NCBI GenBank assembly: GCA_041743085.1 | Contig: JBGTNL010000093.1 | Span: forward strand, 44,704-108,703 | DNA length: 64,000 nt | Reading direction: 5' to 3' | DNA from: Flavobacteriaceae bacterium | GTDB taxonomy: Bacteria > Bacteroidota > Bacteroidia > Flavobacteriales > Flavobacteriaceae | Part shown: in pieces, positions 7,258 through 40,678 of the stretch | How the letters are laid out: each line of letters starts with the position of its first letter | How positions within the stretch are numbered: position 1 is the stretch's first letter | Program-made: the position numbers and the translations under genes | Notes under the pieces: generated by a model | Databases searched by the model: none | Told to the model about the DNA's origin: nothing | What the model saw: the letters and a program-made list of their open reading frames with translations, nothing else

Positions 7258-7528
7258 TATACGAAGTATCTCGGGTACGTGAAAAAATAGTTGTTGAAAT
7301 ACCCAGAGATAATAATTATGCGAACATAATTTTTATTTTATGTGCAAATACGTACTTTTGGCGAAATAATGTCAGAGGAAAGATTTGACTGATTGCAACC
7401 TCAGGTTCCTGAAATTAATTCAGGATAAAAAAATGCTAAAGCAGCCCTTGCCGAAATCAAAACGGCACCTGTTTTAACTTCCCTGCAACTTTCTTTCAAT
7501 TCTTTTGTCTCATTTAAATTTATGTGTT

Positions 7529-8832: not shown

Positions 8833-8861
8833 CAGTTCACAAGTTCAAACACTTATTGAAG

Positions 8862-9006
8862 AGTTATCAAGAAAGGTGGAGGGAATAGACCCCGTGAAGC
8901 CTTAGCAACCCTTTGTTCCTCCGCAGAACTTCCTAAGGTTATCTTATCGGAATAGGATCAGAGAAGGTGCTACGTTCTATCACGCCAGGGGCGTGACAGA
9001 TAACCA
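8862..9006 (+). promoter_or_regulatory. SAM-I (S-box) riboswitch leader of the metY operon
   Basis: Core gttatcaagaaaggtggagggaatagaccccgtgaagccttagcaaccc ... aaggtgctacgttctatc ... gacagataac. The P1 halves gttatc/gataac and the GGUGGAGGGA, GCAACC and AGGUGCUA boxes are present. The variable segment between the GCAACC and AAGGUGC boxes (read as P3) is long, ~50 nt. Confidence 0.8.
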
Positions 9007-21919: not shown

Positions 21920-22052
21920 GATCGTTATCAAGAAAGGTGGAGGGAATAGACCCTTTGAAACCTTAGCAACCCTTTTCCATCCCGATGACTCTTGGGATAT
22001 TGGTATAAAGAAGGTGCTACATTCTATCCCGCGGAGAGCGGGACAGATAACA
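21920..22052 (+). promoter_or_regulatory. SAM-I (S-box) riboswitch leader of metH-metF
   Basis: cgttatcaagaaaggtggagggaatagaccctttgaaaccttagcaaccc ... aaggtgctacattctatc ... gacagataac. The core is almost identical to the copy at 8862-9006. Confidence 0.8.
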
Positions 22053-22230
22053 CGCGGCAAGGTTTTACCGCTCTTGCTCCCAATTTCTTGATATATTTTA
22101 AAATAGCGTTCCCGCCAGTTGGCGGGCCTAACGCAAAATACGACCTTGAGGGACGGAAGGACTTTGTAGGTTTAAAACTGAAGTAATACAATAACAAGAA
22201 ATACTAAAGTCAGGTAAAAGCAATAAAAGC

Positions 22231-35128: not shown

Positions 35129-36025
35129 TTATTCTACCGTTAATTCCGTAAACAGACTTTCCAGATTTTTATTCTTCCGGCTTAATTGCAGCGTCTTTAA
35201 TTTATTGTCATGCGCGAAGTCGAATACCTTTGGCCTCATATCTTTTGATGTATTGAAAGTGATCTCATAGACAAAGCCTCCTGTATTGGTAACTGCGGAA
35301 ACATGAGGAAGTTTTTGAAGAAGGACCTCTTCCACCCTGTAGTCGAATTCCACTTCTATGATCTGTTCATCTTCCTCCCGCAGCTCCGCCAGTTTTTTAT
35401 CTGCCACCAATTTACCTTTGTTGATGATCAGTACACGATCACATACGGCTTCCACTTCTTTCATGATATGTGTGGACAACAGAATGGTCTTTTCCTTTCC
35501 GATTTCTTTGATCAGTTTGCGGATCTCGAGCAGTTGATTGGGATCCAGACCGGTAGTCGGTTCATCCAGAATCAGCACTTCCGGATCATGGAGCAGCGCA
35601 GCGGCAAGTCCCACCCTTTGCCGGTAACCTTTGGACAATTGCCCGATTTTTTTATGTGCCTCCGGTCCAAGCCTTGTTTGGTCTATAACCATAAGGATAC
35701 GTTCTTTCGGTACCCTATAGACATTGGCATTAAAGGCAAGATATTCCTTAACGTACATCTCCGGATACAACGGATTGTGTTCGGGAAGGTACCCAATACT
35801 TTTTTTCACGCTGGCAGCATCGGTTACAACGTCAAAAGCATTTACGGAAGCCTTCCCTTCTTCCGGGGGGCTATAGGTGGTCAGGATCTTCATCATCGTT
35901 GATTTTCCTGCACCGTTTGGCCCCAGAAAGCCAACGATCTCCCCCTTTTTGATATCAAAGGAAATATTGTTCAGGGCTTTCTGACTTCCAAAGGATTTGC
36001 TGATGTTCTTAACCGTTATGGACAT
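35129..36025 (-). CDS. gldA: Gliding-motility ABC transporter ATP-binding subunit
   Basis: 298 aa with Walker A GPNGAGKST, signature LSKGYRQR and Walker B LILDEP. The size and N-terminus resemble flavobacterial GldA. Confidence 0.7.
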   Translation of the reverse strand: MSITVKNISKSFGSQKALNNISFDIKKGEIVGFLGPNGAGKSTMMKILTTYSPPEEGKASVNAFDVVTDAASVKKSIGYLPEHNPLYPEMYVKEYLAFNANVYRVPKERILMVIDQTRLGPEAHKKIGQLSKGYRQRVGLAAALLHDPEVLILDEPTTGLDPNQLLEIRKLIKEIGKEKTILLSTHIMKEVEAVCDRVLIINKGKLVADKKLAELREEDEQIIEVEFDYRVEEVLLQKLPHVSAVTNTGGFVYEITFNTSKDMRPKVFDFAHDNKLKTLQLSRKNKNLESLFTELTVE

Positions 36026-36410
36026 CTAAGAATTTTTAGCAAAAATAAGCAAAGCCGTTATATTAATGACTTTATCCGATATAATCCCAATCAACAGTTA
36101 TTAGTGAAACCCCATTTTAATAATCCCGCTTTTTAGCGGGAGCGGTTAAAATGGATGGTTGAACCAACCCCTCTTTTTCAGCGGGGTCTAGGTTTAATAC
36201 CTCGACCCTTGGGTCTATTCCTTCTCTTGGGTCCAGGGCTGGCCCTGGGGTTTAATGCCATTTACTGTTCGGGTTTTTTCAGGAGAATTTATTCAGAGCA
36301 ACGATTCAGGAGCTATAAATAAATCCACTATTCTCAACATTTTATTGATTTTAAAATCAATTCCACAAATAATATTATCATTCGTAGAAGATTCAAAAAA
36401 AGATGCGGAT

Positions 36411-36418
36411 TAAATTTG
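36411..36418 (+). promoter_or_regulatory. Candidate -7 promoter box (TAnnTTTG) for the aromatic operon leader
   Basis: taaatttg lies 45 nt upstream of the leader-peptide ATG. Confidence 0.4.
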
Positions 36419-36462
36419 ATTTTTAAATTAAATATTTACCTTAGCCGAACATTTGCAATAAA

Positions 36463-36534
36463 ATGACACCTAATTATTTCTGGAACGGTTTCTATTTCTA
36501 CTTCTTTTTTAAAGGAAGAACGGGACTGTTGTAG
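36463..36534 (+). CDS. 23-codon aromatic-rich leader peptide MTPNYFWNGFYFYFFFKGRTGLL
   Basis: ATG...TAG in the 5' leader of pheA. Ten of the 23 residues are Phe, Tyr or Trp, with 7 consecutive aromatic codons. The last codons overlap the antiterminator arm. Confidence 0.7.
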   Translation: MTPNYFWNGFYFYFFFKGRTGLL

Positions 36535-36552
36535 TATATGAGATAACCATAT

Positions 36553-36588
36553 AAAAAAGAGTCCCGTAACATACGGGACTTTTTTTAT
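36553..36588 (+). terminator. Attenuator terminator of the aromatic operon leader
   Basis: agtcccgta-aca-tacgggact is followed by T7. The left arm (36560-36567) can instead pair perfectly with acgggact at 36520-36527. Confidence 0.7.
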
Positions 36589-36603
36589 GCAAGAAATTCA
36601 ATT

Positions 36604-37431
36604 TTGAAAAAACGAATCGCCATACAGGGAATTAAGGGTTCTAACCACCACCAGGTGGCACGGGAATATTTTAAAGAAGAGATGGATCTGGTAGAATGCC
36701 TTTCCTTTGACGCCCTGGTAGCCCAATTGCTCACCAATAAAGCCGATAAGGGGGTAATGGCCATTGAGAACTCCATTGCCGGCTCCATTCTTCCTAACTA
36801 TGCCCTAGTCTATCAGAATAACCTGCATATAATAGGGGAACATTATCTGAATATTCATCACAACCTCATGGTATTGAATGGCCAGCGACTTTCTGATGTA
36901 CTGGAAGTGCATTCACATCCTATGGCGCTCTTGCAATGCAAGGAATTTTTTAAGGAATACCCCCAGATTAAATTGGTAGAGGATGTGGATACCGCTGAAA
37001 CCGCAAAGAGGATACAGGAGAATGAATTAACGGGGATAGGGGCAATTGCACCCCGTGCGGCAGCTGAATTGTATGATCTCACCATAATAGCTCCCGAAAT
37101 CCAAACAATTAATAACAACGCTACCCGGTTTATCATCATCAAGACGAAGAACAAGGAGCTTCCCAAGGAGGAGATCAATAAAGCTTCGGTCCGTTTTATT
37201 ACCGATCACAAAAGAGGGAGCTTGGCCACGGTGCTCAATGTGATGAGCGATTGCAACCTGAACCTTACAAAGATCCAATCGCTTCCCATAATAGAAACAC
37301 CCTGGAAATATGCTTTTTTTGTAGATGTAACCTTTGAGGAATATATAGATTTTTCAAAGGCTAAGTCGCTATTGGAGATCATGGCGGAAGAATTCAGGGT
37401 TCTGGGGGAGTATAAAAATGCAAGGTTATGA
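36604..37431 (+). CDS. pheA: Prephenate dehydratase
   Basis: 275 aa with IAIQGIKGSNHH..., a PDT domain and a C-terminal ACT domain. The apparent start is TTG. Confidence 0.85.
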   Translation: MKKRIAIQGIKGSNHHQVAREYFKEEMDLVECLSFDALVAQLLTNKADKGVMAIENSIAGSILPNYALVYQNNLHIIGEHYLNIHHNLMVLNGQRLSDVLEVHSHPMALLQCKEFFKEYPQIKLVEDVDTAETAKRIQENELTGIGAIAPRAAAELYDLTIIAPEIQTINNNATRFIIIKTKNKELPKEEINKASVRFITDHKRGSLATVLNVMSDCNLNLTKIQSLPIIETPWKYAFFVDVTFEEYIDFSKAKSLLEIMAEEFRVLGEYKNARL

Positions 37432-38579
37432 TCCGAACAGCGCAGCGATTAGATACAGTTGAAGAATACTATTTCTCCAGGAAACTGCGAGAGGTACGGG
37501 AACTTATTGCCGGGGGGCGGCCCATTATTAATATGGGGATCGGAAGTCCCGATATGGAGCCACCTGAGGCCGTGTTAAGTGCCTTGTTACGGTCGGTAAG
37601 AGATATTGGAGCACATCAGTACCAAAGTTATCAGGGCCTTCCGGAACTCCGGGATGCTATAGCGGCTTTTTACAGATCGAAATTTAAGGTCCATGCGGAC
37701 CCAAATAATGAGATTTTGCCATTGATGGGATCCAAGGAAGGTATTATGCATATAAGCATGGCCTTTTTAAATACAGGAGATGAAGTATTAATTCCTAATC
37801 CCGGATATCCTACCTATACCTCAGTGACCAATCTTGTAGGTGCAACACCCAAATTTTATGGGCTGATGGAAAATAATGCATGGTTCCCTGACCTGGCGGA
37901 ATTGGAGAAGCAGGATTTGAGCAAGGTAAAACTGATGTGGGTCTGTTATCCGCACATGCCAACCGGCGCGACGGCAAGCGAATCCCAGTTTCAGAAATTG
38001 GTGGCATTTGCGAGGCGCAATTCGATTTTACTGGTTAATGACAATCCTTACAGTTTTGTGTTGGGCAAACATCCGGTTAGCCTGCTTGGAACTAAAGGAG
38101 CCAAAGACACTGCATTGGAGTTGAATTCCCTCAGTAAAACTTTTAATATGGCCGGTTGGCGGGTGGGAATGGTACTTGGAAGCCGTGACCATATTGCCGC
38201 CGTATTAAAGGTAAAAAGCAATATGGATTCCGGAATGTTTTATGGAATTCAAAAAGGGGCCATCGCAGCGTTGAAAAGTGAGCCGGAATGGTTTGCAGGA
38301 TTAAATGCAGCGTATGAATCCCGGAGGTCATTGCTTTTTCAATTAGCGGATAAAATGCATTGTACGTATGATGCTGCTGCTGTTGGCATGTTTGTATGGG
38401 CAAAATTACCTGAGGAGTCGCCGTCTTCTGAGGAATTTATTGATAAGGTTTTATATGAAAACGACATTTTTATTGCACCCGGAACCATTTTCGGCAGCAA
38501 TGGAGAGGGATATATAAGATTTTCACTTTGCGTGAAAGAGGAGAAGATAAAGGAAGCAATAAAGAGATATGAGATATGA
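37428..38579 (+). CDS. Class I/II PLP aminotransferase (probable aromatic/prephenate aminotransferase)
   Basis: 383 aa with NPGYPTY and the SLSKTFNMAGWRVG PLP-Lys motif. It overlaps the pheA stop by 4 nt. Confidence 0.8.
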   Translation: MIRTAQRLDTVEEYYFSRKLREVRELIAGGRPIINMGIGSPDMEPPEAVLSALLRSVRDIGAHQYQSYQGLPELRDAIAAFYRSKFKVHADPNNEILPLMGSKEGIMHISMAFLNTGDEVLIPNPGYPTYTSVTNLVGATPKFYGLMENNAWFPDLAELEKQDLSKVKLMWVCYPHMPTGATASESQFQKLVAFARRNSILLVNDNPYSFVLGKHPVSLLGTKGAKDTALELNSLSKTFNMAGWRVGMVLGSRDHIAAVLKVKSNMDSGMFYGIQKGAIAALKSEPEWFAGLNAAYESRRSLLFQLADKMHCTYDAAAVGMFVWAKLPEESPSSEEFIDKVLYENDIFIAPGTIFGSNGEGYIRFSLCVKEEKIKEAIKRYEI

Positions 38580-38610
38580 GATATCAGATATGAGATATGA
38601 GATATGAGAT
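38564..38610. repeat. Heptanucleotide microsatellite (GAGATAT) x ~6.7
   Basis: gagatat gagatat gagatat cagatat gagatat gagatat gagat. The aminotransferase stop TGA (38577-38579) lies inside copies 2-3. Confidence 0.95.
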
Positions 38611-38728
38611 TTTTACAATATGAACATGAAAACGAAATATAGAATTAATTTATCAGGTTTACTTGTTGATTATGGAAATAATGCCAAAAAAAGGCATCAG
38701 ACAGCACATATCTAAATACTAAGATACA

Positions 38729-39592
38729 ATGAACGTATTCATCATCGGGATAGGCTTAATAGGAGGTTCCATGGCAAGGGATATAAGGCAAATCTATCCC
38801 GATGCGAAAATCTATGGGATAGATAACAATGCTACTCACGTGGAGGAGGCGCTCGCTTTGGGCCTGATAAACGCAAAATCGGAATATGAAGAACTTTCTC
38901 GGGCCGATACCGTAATTGTTGCTATTCCAGTGGATACCCTGGTAACCGAATTGCCCGGAATTATGGATAATATCAATGAAGCCGCTTTAGTAATAGATGC
39001 CGGGTCCACAAAGGCGCTTATCTGTAAGACCTTGGAAGATCATCCGAAAAGGCGTAATTTTTTGGCTTGCCACCCCATCTCGGGAACCGAATTTTCAGGT
39101 CCGGCCGCCGCTGTTGAAGGACTTTTTAAGGGAAAAACGAATATTATTTGCGAAGTGGAGAAAACCGCCTTCAAACTGCAGGAAAGAGCCTTGGAACTAT
39201 TTCAAAAAATGGGGATGCGTATTCGTTATATGAACCCGGAGGCGCATGACAAACATATTGCCTATGTTTCCCACCTGTCACACATCAGTTCTTTTATGCT
39301 TGGGAAAACAGTGATCGAAAAAGAAAAGAACGAACGCGATATTTTTGATATGGCAGGCAGCGGTTTTGAAAGCACGGTTCGTCTGGCAAAAAGCTCACCG
39401 GACATGTGGACCCCCATTTTTGAACAGAATAGAGATAATGTAGTTGAAACACTGGAAGAGTACATACAGAACCTCAAAGATTTTAAACAAAAACTTTTGG
39501 ATAATGACTACCGGGGTATTTACAGAGAAATGGACAATACGAATAAAATAAAGGAGATATTAAAAGGAATCCCAATTAATAAACAGAATTAA
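38729..39592 (+). CDS. tyrA: Prephenate dehydrogenase
   Basis: 287 aa with the Rossmann motif IIGIGLIGGS and HPISGTE. Confidence 0.85.
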   Translation: MNVFIIGIGLIGGSMARDIRQIYPDAKIYGIDNNATHVEEALALGLINAKSEYEELSRADTVIVAIPVDTLVTELPGIMDNINEAALVIDAGSTKALICKTLEDHPKRRNFLACHPISGTEFSGPAAAVEGLFKGKTNIICEVEKTAFKLQERALELFQKMGMRIRYMNPEAHDKHIAYVSHLSHISSFMLGKTVIEKEKNERDIFDMAGSGFESTVRLAKSSPDMWTPIFEQNRDNVVETLEEYIQNLKDFKQKLLDNDYRGIYREMDNTNKIKEILKGIPINKQN

Positions 39593-39595
39593 AGT

Positions 39596-40678
39596 ATGGA
39601 GAATTCAATGGATTTAAGGGCCTGGTTAGACGATATGAATTTATCGCACCCTTTGGTCATTGCGGGGCCTTGCAGCGCGGAGACCGAAAAGCAGGTATTG
39701 GAAATTGCAAATGAGTTAAAGGAGACAGACGTTAACTATTACCGGGCAGGAATATGGAAACCCAGAACCCGTCCCGGGAATTTTGAGGGAGTTGGAGCCA
39801 TAGGATTAAAATGGCTGCAAAAGGTAAAGAATGAAACCGGTCTTAAAACCGCTACCGAGGTGGCAAATAGAGCACATGTGGATCTGGCCCTTGAGCATGA
39901 TATTGATCTTTTATGGATTGGAGCCCGCTCTACGGTGAGTCCTTTTATTGTTCAGGAAATAGCGGATGCCCTGGAAGGCACGGATAAAATAGTTCTTGTA
40001 AAGAATCCCGTTAATCCGGACCTATCCCTGTGGTTAGGGGCTGTGGAACGATTGCATACGGCCAATATTAAAAAGCTGGGGGTTATCCACAGGGGCTTTT
40101 CAACCTATGAAAAAACAAAATACCGCAACATACCGGAATGGCAATTGCCAATTGAGTTACAGACCAAGTTCCCGGATCTACCACTTATCAACGATCCCTC
40201 GCATATTACGGGTAAACGGGATATGATCTTCGATGTTTCGCAAACCGCCCTGGACCTGAATTTTGACGGGCTGATGATAGAAACCCACTGTGATCCCGAT
40301 AATGCCTGGAGCGATGCGGCACAACAGGTAACACCCAAAAGACTGGTACAGATCATGGAAGATTTAAAAATCAGAAAGGAAACAGACAAGGAGGCGGAAT
40401 ACAATGCGAAGCTGAACAATTTAAGGGCACAGATCGATATTATTGATAACCAATTAATAGAGACCCTGGGGAAGCGAATGAAGGTTGCGGATAATATCGG
40501 AGCATTAAAAAGGCAGAAGAATGTGGCTGTATTACAGACCACCCGGTGGAACGCTATTCTGGGTAAAATGATCCTGGAAGGCGAATCCAAAGGGTTAAGT
40601 GAGGAGTTTGTTCTAAGAATGTTCAAGGCCATTCACCAGGAGTCTATCAACCATCAGGAGAAGATTATTAATGCTTAG
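39596..40678 (+). CDS. Bifunctional 3-deoxy-7-phosphoheptulonate (DAHP) synthase (type I-beta) / chorismate mutase
   Basis: 360 aa. The N-terminal part is a KDSA-like DAHP synthase (AGPCSAE, KPRT, DPSH). The C-terminal ~90 aa are chorismate mutase type II (LRAQIDIIDNQLIETLGKRM). Confidence 0.85.
   Translation: MENSMDLRAWLDDMNLSHPLVIAGPCSAETEKQVLEIANELKETDVNYYRAGIWKPRTRPGNFEGVGAIGLKWLQKVKNETGLKTATEVANRAHVDLALEHDIDLLWIGARSTVSPFIVQEIADALEGTDKIVLVKNPVNPDLSLWLGAVERLHTANIKKLGVIHRGFSTYEKTKYRNIPEWQLPIELQTKFPDLPLINDPSHITGKRDMIFDVSQTALDLNFDGLMIETHCDPDNAWSDAAQQVTPKRLVQIMEDLKIRKETDKEAEYNAKLNNLRAQIDIIDNQLIETLGKRMKVADNIGALKRQKNVAVLQTTRWNAILGKMILEGESKGLSEEFVLRMFKAIHQESINHQEKIINA

Follow-up and report, generated by a model that had tools for sequence, protein, structure and literature searches.

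Known attenuators and the pheA leader of Flavobacteriaceae

This study deals with the leader of the pheA operon in a 64,000-nucleotide (nt) stretch of DNA from a Flavobacteriaceae bacterium (GenBank assembly GCA_041743085.1, contig JBGTNL010000093.1, positions 44,704 to 108,703 of the forward strand), which is called the window below and is numbered from its first letter. An earlier note on this stretch had proposed that the leader is an attenuator, and our analysis makes it very probable, from sequence comparison, that a ribosome-mediated four-segment leader-peptide transcription attenuator controls the pheA-aminotransferase-tyrA-DAHP synthase/chorismate mutase operon. In Escherichia coli, the pheL leader contains regulatory codons for Phe only and has pheA as its sole target; TyrR regulates tyrA and aroF. 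The E. coli pheL-pheA attenuator (RF01859; Gurvich et al. 2011, PMC3082878) resembles the window in its pheA target, its logic, its run of Phe codons and its alternative 1:2, 2:3 and 3:4 hairpins with an intrinsic terminator. The window differs in that codons for Phe, Tyr and Trp are mixed, the operon additionally contains tyrA and the DAHP synthase/chorismate mutase gene, and there is no Shine-Dalgarno (SD) sequence. In a 401-nt search, Phe_leader RF01859 was the best match among all Rfam families (27.8 bits, E = 0.012; the gathering score is 55 bits), but this match is sub-threshold and mostly due to the terminator, so that sequence homology to RF01859 is not detectable. At the gathering threshold, the Rfam search of the whole window returned nothing at the pheA leader, and a permissive search gave only sub-threshold leader and terminator matches. 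The element is pheL-like in its working and lies outside the RF01859 family.

Within the same phylum, the Bacteroid-trp leader (RF01692; Weinberg et al. 2010, PMC2864571) is likewise a cis-regulatory leader that precedes amino acid biosynthesis genes, and Guérin et al., who mapped it upstream of a trpE operon, call it a tryptophan peptide leader RNA (PMC9723704). It is a precedent for leader-peptide control without SD-led initiation, but its amino acid, operon and sequence are different, and RF01692 gave no match to the pheA leader region in the permissive Rfam search. Moreover, Gurvich et al. suggested that Bacteroides may use a pheL gene (PMC3082878), and the ilvE, hisG, pheA and trpE leaders of Flavobacterium psychrophilum are further published precedents (PMC9723704). 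The earlier note had considered a working attenuator in a phylum that largely lacks SD-led initiation to be mechanistically interesting; in view of these precedents a claim of novelty would be overstated, and only a modest interest is left.

The closest described system is the pheA-aspC3 leader of F. psychrophilum, THC0290_N_0195, which Guérin et al. 2021 (ISME Commun 1:33, PMC9723704) list as a 'leader peptide attenuation element' in Table S7 and Appendix D9. In that report it is transcribed as a separate 5' region of 170 nt, whose start site was mapped, beside a divergent gldA, and the element is said to occur in other Flavobacteriaceae genera and to have no Rfam hit. As in the window, the order is divergent gldA, leader, pheA, aminotransferase and DAHP synthase, and the leader has an aromatic-rich ORF (open reading frame) with an FYFYW run that is followed by segments of the types GGGAYUGU, ACARUCCC and CGGGAYU with a U-tract. 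The F. psychrophilum leader has 27 amino acids with seven aromatic codons compared to 23 amino acids with 10 aromatic codons in the window, its stop codon is four codons past segment 2, unlike that of the window, its -7 box is the canonical TATGTTTG and its 5' untranslated region (UTR) is 20 nt long. In the table rows of that paper drawn on here, no tyrA is seen between the aminotransferase and DAHP synthase genes, and the paper does not describe the almost invariant 23-codon consensus of the marine clade presented below. On diluted TYES agar, the log2 microarray signal was 11.5-12.4 for the F. psychrophilum leader and 5.9-7.9 for pheA, and on TYESA-FCS both were high (11.7-12.1 and 11.0-11.3, respectively; PMC9723704). 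The level of the leader is thus uncoupled from that of pheA, which fits an attenuator. Both by synteny and by alignment, the window contains the Flavobacteriaceae pheA 5' element of Guérin et al., and its leader is an orthologue of this published, computationally and transcriptomically supported one.

The leader ORF and its alternative RNA structures

The leader and its RNA comprise the following features:

36463..36534, plus strand: leader peptide ORF (pheL-like), 23 codons, MTPNYFWNGFYFYFFFKGRTGLL
36475..36510, plus strand: putative regulatory aromatic codons Y5 F6 W7 .. F10 Y11 F12 Y13 F14 F15 F16, with aromatic-only substitutions in relatives
36480..36492, plus strand: segment 1, 5' arm of the 1:2 (anti-antiterminator) hairpin, from the minimum free energy (MFE) fold and the RNAalifold consensus
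36520..36534, plus strand: segment 2, last four sense codons and the stop codon
36535..36553, plus strand: small spacer hairpin (UAUAUG..CAUAUA), which stacks within the extended antiterminator stem
36560..36567, plus strand: segment 3 (agtcccgt), which pairs with segment 2 in the antiterminator and with segment 4 in the terminator
36572..36586, plus strand: segment 4 (tacgggact) and T-run, the 3' arm and U-tract of an intrinsic terminator with its stem-loop at 36560-36580

The 23-codon ORF rich in Phe, Tyr and Trp that the earlier note had described is present, with its ATG at 36463, its TAG at 36532-36534 and the same aromatic counts (six Phe, three Tyr and one Trp). Ten of its 23 codons are therefore aromatic, and they include a run of seven out of seven. 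Among the small ORFs of the whole window, taken as first-ATG ORFs of 10-45 codons (n = 554), it was the only one with at least six aromatic residues in seven consecutive positions, scoring 7/7, and when the window was simulated 100 times with a first-order Markov model, a 7-of-7 aromatic stretch did not arise in any ORF. In favour of a chance ORF beside an ordinary terminator, one could say that TTT, TTC and TAT triplets abound in AT-rich intergenic DNA, but with such a rare run this explanation is scarcely credible, and it is refuted by the conservation of the arrangement in 79 of 79 relatives (see below). Additionally, because gldA is divergent from the leader, on the minus strand, the leader hairpin cannot terminate an upstream gene and, as an ordinary terminator, would have nothing to terminate. 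The arrangement of leader, hairpin and operon is not due to chance.

The earlier note had named three complementary segments with an A-run and a T-run, and all of these were found where it had placed them: acgggact at 36520-36527, agtcccgt at 36560-36567, tacgggact at 36572-36580, the A-run aaaaaag at 36553-36559 and the T7 run at 36580-36586, the first T of which doubles as the last base of the stem and leaves six T after the hairpin. Of the design that it had proposed, the competing pairings hold and the count of three segments does not; the folds have the classical four, and its segments 1, 2 and 3 are the classical segments 2, 3 and 4. Segment 1 consists of the Trp-Asn-Gly-Phe codons and pairs with the end of the leader (36523-36534) in the MFE fold, and in the inner helix of this 1:2 hairpin the Phe codons at 36502-36507 pair with the purine-rich Lys-Gly-Arg codons at 36512-36517. 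Segment 2 has two roles, 36520-36527 being the 5' arm of the antiterminator and 36523-36534 the 3' arm of the 1:2 hairpin. An intrinsic terminator (36560-36586) with a 9-bp stem, five G-C pairs and the T7 run separates the leader ORF from pheA.

The 161-nt leader folds at -42.9 kcal/mol compared to -25.6 +/- 3.8 kcal/mol for shuffled sequences (z = -4.6). The comparison of the alternative structures that the earlier note had suggested gave -20.1 kcal/mol for the extended 2:3 stem, with the small hairpin included, and -19.3 kcal/mol for the 3:4 terminator, with its A/U extension included; the 1:2 hairpin alone has -15.3 kcal/mol. The geometry suits control by a ribosome. The stop codon (36532-36534) is 5 nt past the core of segment 2 and the aromatic codons (36475-36510) overlap segment 1; with an assumed ribosome footprint of about 30 nt, a terminating ribosome is positioned over segment 2, and a stalled one over segment 1 and not over segment 2.

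Conservation in Flavobacteriaceae

The relatives were taken from a pheA protein scan with one genome per species, and the closest 80 of 543 confirmed relatives (75-84% pheA identity) were compared; their genera include Muriicola, Eudoraea, Maribacter, Zobellia, Flagellimonas, Arenibacter, Sediminicola, Cellulophaga and Croceivirga. In a search for pheA protein homologues, the best 120 matches were all at least 79% identical, with no distant taxa among the matches listed, and the distribution beyond the scanned clade was taken from the literature, that is, from F. psychrophilum and the mention of Bacteroides in PMC3082878. The leader mini-ORF was present in all 79 related loci with enough upstream DNA (consensus MTKQYFWNGFYFYFFFKRGTGLL), and the comparison that the earlier note had called for thus found the aromatic-rich ORF kept throughout. 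The AGTCCCG...CGGGACT terminator with its T-run was also present in all 79 informative loci and was still visible in the 80th, which is cut off. The order pheA, aminotransferase, tyrA, DAHP synthase/chorismate mutase was identical in 77 of the 80 loci, and the remaining three are truncated.

The leader has 23 amino acids in 73 sequences, 22 in six and 25 in one, and its stop codon, which is TAG in 65, TAA in eight and TGA in seven, is always in frame. Codon 7 is TGG in 54 sequences, TAT in 15 and TTY in 10, and hence W, Y or F in 79/79. Codons 12, 14 and 15 are Phe in 79/79, and at codons 11, 13 and 16 only F and Y interchange, in 74-78 of 79 (codon 11 is Y or F in 74 and codon 13 in 78). The third positions of the aromatic codons vary (TTT/TTC, TAT/TAC), as do the N-terminal residues 2-4. 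These codon statistics point to a selected translation of the leader ORF.

The conservation of the codons also bears on a different explanation, in which the attenuator is switched by a trans-acting factor, an RNA-binding protein or an uncharged tRNA in the style of TRAP, PyrR or the T-box, and the ORF is incidental to a U-rich structure. The UUY and UAY aromatic codons double as the pyrimidine-rich arm of the 1:2 hairpin, which makes their conservation partly structural, and we infer the translation of the leader. However, structure alone can hardly explain why codon 7 is restricted to TGG, TAT and TTY, or why the start codon, the frame and an in-frame stop are kept in 79/79 although the identity of the stop varies. 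The stop codon is positioned precisely so that a ribosome terminating on it would cover segment 2, and the Rfam search gave no significant match of the T-box, TRAP or PyrR type. We regard control by such a factor as highly improbable compared to control by a translating ribosome.

The structures were counted on the 80-sequence alignment A1 (MAFFT), on which the RNAalifold consensus recovered both the terminator and the 1:2 hairpin; in the latter, 95.9-98.3% of the alignment cells are paired. The terminator is paired in 97.9% of the cells, is present in all 80 sequences and has changes on both sides in six of its nine pairs; a GC-rich stem and a T tract of 5-10 were found in every sequence. In the antiterminator 2:3 (columns 73-79 with 120-126), 96.6% of the cells are paired compared to 20-57% when the partner is slid by one to three columns. 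When each of the 80 sequences was folded over the stretch that begins 18 nt ahead of its stop codon and runs up to the loop of the terminator, segments 2 and 3 paired in every MFE structure. The median energies over the 80 sequences are the same for 2:3 and 3:4 (-14.7 kcal/mol each). The columns of the small spacer hairpin are paired in only 59% of the cells in this column-based test because MAFFT does not align the variable spacer structurally; the hairpin is seen in the per-sequence folds that were printed and is present in most relatives.

The segments also vary coherently. In eight loci (L016, L021, L026, L027, L031, L049, L054 and L068), segment 3 is AGTTCCG and segment 4 is CGGAACT, and the new U retains a G.U pair with segment 2 in seven of them; in L049, the exception, segment 2 is GGAGCT and all pairs with AGTTCCG are kept. 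In L036, AGTTCCG in segment 3 pairs perfectly with an altered segment 2, GGAACT.

The same region could be thought to act at another level, with the translation of the leader governing the initiation of pheA translation or the stability of the mRNA rather than the termination of transcription. The window itself gives some reason for this, as its terminator ends only 17 nt before the TTG start of pheA. Among the relatives, however, the distance between the hairpin and pheA ranges from ~4 to ~90 nt with the pheA start never within the hairpin, the hairpin has the full form of an intrinsic terminator in every sequence, and the F. psychrophilum 5' region behaves as a separate transcript. The probability of this explanation is accordingly very small, and transcription attenuation is preferred.

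The aromatic run, segment 2 and the terminator of the window can all be aligned with the published 170-nt F. psychrophilum sequence, in which each of the three segments has changed in step with the others (GGGAUUGU, ACAAUCCC and CGGGAUU). The reading frame across segment 2 is a different one in F. psychrophilum (R-D-C compared to G-L-L in the window), and therefore the tail of the leader is conserved as RNA and not as peptide. This observation speaks against a functional small hydrophobic peptide whose hairpin would be its own terminator, with constitutive partial termination before pheA. The striking conservation of the peptide over its full length would agree with such a function, but the C-terminal codons are segment 2, whose nucleotides F. 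psychrophilum keeps in the different frame, the conserved Trp-Asn-Gly-Phe codons coincide with segment 1, and residues 2-4 are variable. Moreover, a peptide function assigns no role to the conserved 2:3 complementarity, and the peptide is only 22-25 amino acids long and immediately precedes the genes for the synthesis of the residues that dominate it. We consider it very unlikely that the leader serves as such a peptide.

Putative promoter and proposed initiation of leader translation

Two promoter elements are proposed upstream of the leader:

36416..36418, plus strand: putative -33 element TTG, inside the TAAATTTG box and 19 nt upstream of the -7-like box
36438..36445, plus strand: putative sigma-A -7 box TACCTTAG, a conserved TAnnTTAG variant of TAnnTTTG

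A TAnnTTAG box precedes the leader ATG by ~26 nt in 72 of the 80 sequences, seven more have AAnnTTAG, and the box starts at -25 or -26 from the ATG in 61/80. TTG is 17-19 nt upstream of this box in 35/80, and the TTG at 36416-36418 is a putative -33 element at a Bacteroidota-like position. In F. psychrophilum, the sigma-A -7 box spans -12 to -5, counted from the start site that was mapped there (PMC9723704). By analogy, transcription in the window would start near 36451, with a predicted 5' UTR of ~12 nt. The TAnnTTTG box that the earlier note had pointed out, TAAATTTG, is indeed located at 36411-36418, but a conserved -7 role was rejected for it, since TAnnTTTG at that position was found in the window alone, and it more likely supplies the -33 TTG. 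A scan for sigma-70 promoters was rejected as inapplicable to the promoters of Bacteroidota.

A run of 7-9 A (tcAAAAAAAg, 36393-36400), ~15-20 nt upstream of the putative -33 TTG, is kept in nearly all of the related loci and may be an UP-like promoter element.

No purine-rich SD sequence was found upstream of the leader ATG in the examined leaders. The context of the ATG has A at -3 in 61/80 (76%) and A at -1 in 60/80, and A at -3 is known to promote initiation in F. johnsoniae (PMC6847099).

Proposed mechanism of attenuation

The central claim of the earlier note, a ribosome-mediated attenuator, is supported by the conservation of the ORF, the aromatic-only substitutions, the conserved terminator and antiterminator and the geometry. 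In the proposed mechanism, transcription would start near 36451 from the TTG-N19-TACCTTAG promoter, and ribosomes would initiate independently of an SD sequence at the AUG at 36463 in its A-rich context, AAUAAAAUG. When the Phe-, Tyr- and Trp-tRNAs are charged, the ribosome would reach the UAG (36532-36534) and cover segment 2 (36520-36534); segment 3 (36560-36567) would then pair with segment 4 (36572-36580), and the polymerase would terminate at the U-tract before pheA. When an aromatic aminoacyl-tRNA is scarce, the ribosome would stall in codons 5-16 (36475-36510) and cover segment 1 (36480-36492), leaving segment 2 free to pair with segment 3 once this is transcribed (-20.1 kcal/mol); segment 4 would be left without a partner and the polymerase would read through into the operon. 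If the leader is not translated, 1:2 would pair (-15.3 kcal/mol) and the terminator would form.

Several points weigh against this mechanism. When segment 1 is masked, the full-length equilibrium fold still favours the terminator; antitermination must therefore be kinetic, with 2:3 forming first during transcription. The classical trp attenuator likewise depends on the kinetic formation of 2:3. With a ribosome halted at the last Phe codon (36508-36510), the first bases of segment 2 would probably be covered as well, and the predicted 5' UTR of ~12 nt is short. The compensatory changes for which the earlier note had asked are present as coherent variants and in six of the nine terminator pairs, but in sequences that are nearly invariant there are few true double changes, and in the antiterminator they are scarce (four such cells in three pairs). 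Related sequences can also exceed shuffle controls when they have no structure at all. In L070, the 2:3 pairing is weak by eye (GGGG/CCCC core), although in the folds of all sequences, its own included, at least five bases of segment 2 pair with segment 3. Finally, for this organism we infer the promoter and transcription start, the translation of the leader, the stalling of the ribosome and the conditional termination.

The mixture of Phe and Tyr codons, the usual single Trp codon and an operon that makes Phe, Tyr and the shared entry enzyme suggest that the signal is multivalent, and the attenuator probably responds to more than one amino acid, mainly to Phe and then to Tyr. Multivalent attenuators are known in E. 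coli, where thr responds to Thr and Ile and ilvGMEDA to Ile, Leu and Val; these share with the window codons for more than one end product, but the amino acids differ and multivalence in the window is read from codon content. Tentatively, and with rather more doubt, the version of the marine Flavobacteriaceae may be truly multivalent, sensing the charging of Phe, Tyr and Trp tRNAs through ribosomes that ignore SD sequences and a 5' UTR of ~12 nt. To our knowledge, a tight coupling of transcription and translation has not yet been directly demonstrated in Bacteroidota. If the tentative reading is true, the multivalent leader would be a natural, compact reporter of such coupling in this phylum and the seed of a new Rfam family.

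Leader-peptide attenuation of pheA is textbook knowledge and its occurrence in Flavobacteriaceae was already reported, and the conceptual gain is therefore small. The value is mainly one of annotation, as a regulatory element and an unannotated small ORF can be assigned to the aromatic operon here and in at least 79 other Flavobacteriaceae species, and the 80-sequence alignment could support a new Rfam family for an element that the current models miss. Of modest interest are the mixed run of Phe, Tyr and Trp codons before an operon for Phe and Tyr and the requirement for SD-independent initiation that is closely coupled to transcription, for which the pheA leader is a handy system.

The operon and other features of the window

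The genes around the leader, assigned by NCBIfam, are the following:

36604-37431, plus strand: pheA, prephenate dehydratase, TTG start
37428-38579, plus strand: class-I aminotransferase
38729-39592, plus strand: tyrA, prephenate dehydrogenase
39596-40678, plus strand: bifunctional DAHP synthase/chorismate mutase
36604..40678, plus strand: putative regulated operon of all four genes, also based on the gene order in relatives
35129-36025, minus strand: gldA, upstream neighbour, divergent from the leader

NCBIfam thus confirmed the four downstream genes that the earlier note had named. The TTG start of pheA at 36604 is shared by L004, L005, L041 and L052, and the other orthologues mostly have ATG or GTG at the aligned position. 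A six-codon mini-ORF, ATGCAAGAAATTCAATTTTGA (36587-36607), begins in the tail of the terminator, and its stop overlaps the pheA TTG. A similar one is present in the closest relative, L005, and in none of the other relatives whose sequence was inspected; it is probably fortuitous. A tandem repeat of the heptamer GAGATAT (~38564-38611), with ~6 copies of which one has an extra CA, extends across the stop codon of the aminotransferase gene and sits at the beginning of the 149-nt gap between this gene and tyrA.

In the AT-rich intergenic region between gldA and pheA, there is a GC-rich stretch of ~200 nt (36090-36300) that ends with cgggtttttt and has short hairpins such as cccgc..gcggg, ggttgaaccaacc and ccaggg..ccctgg. 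The window has only this one copy. Because none of the 80 related loci contains the stretch and Rfam gave no match to it, it was rejected as a part of the attenuator. It may be the remnant of an insertion or a strain-specific small RNA.

Elsewhere in the window, one SAM-II (61 bits) and two SAM-I (66 and 73 bits) riboswitches scored above the Rfam gathering scores at 7369-7449, 8861-9006 and 21922-22053 (plus strand), and several cis-regulatory RNAs of sulfur and methionine genes are thus present in the window.

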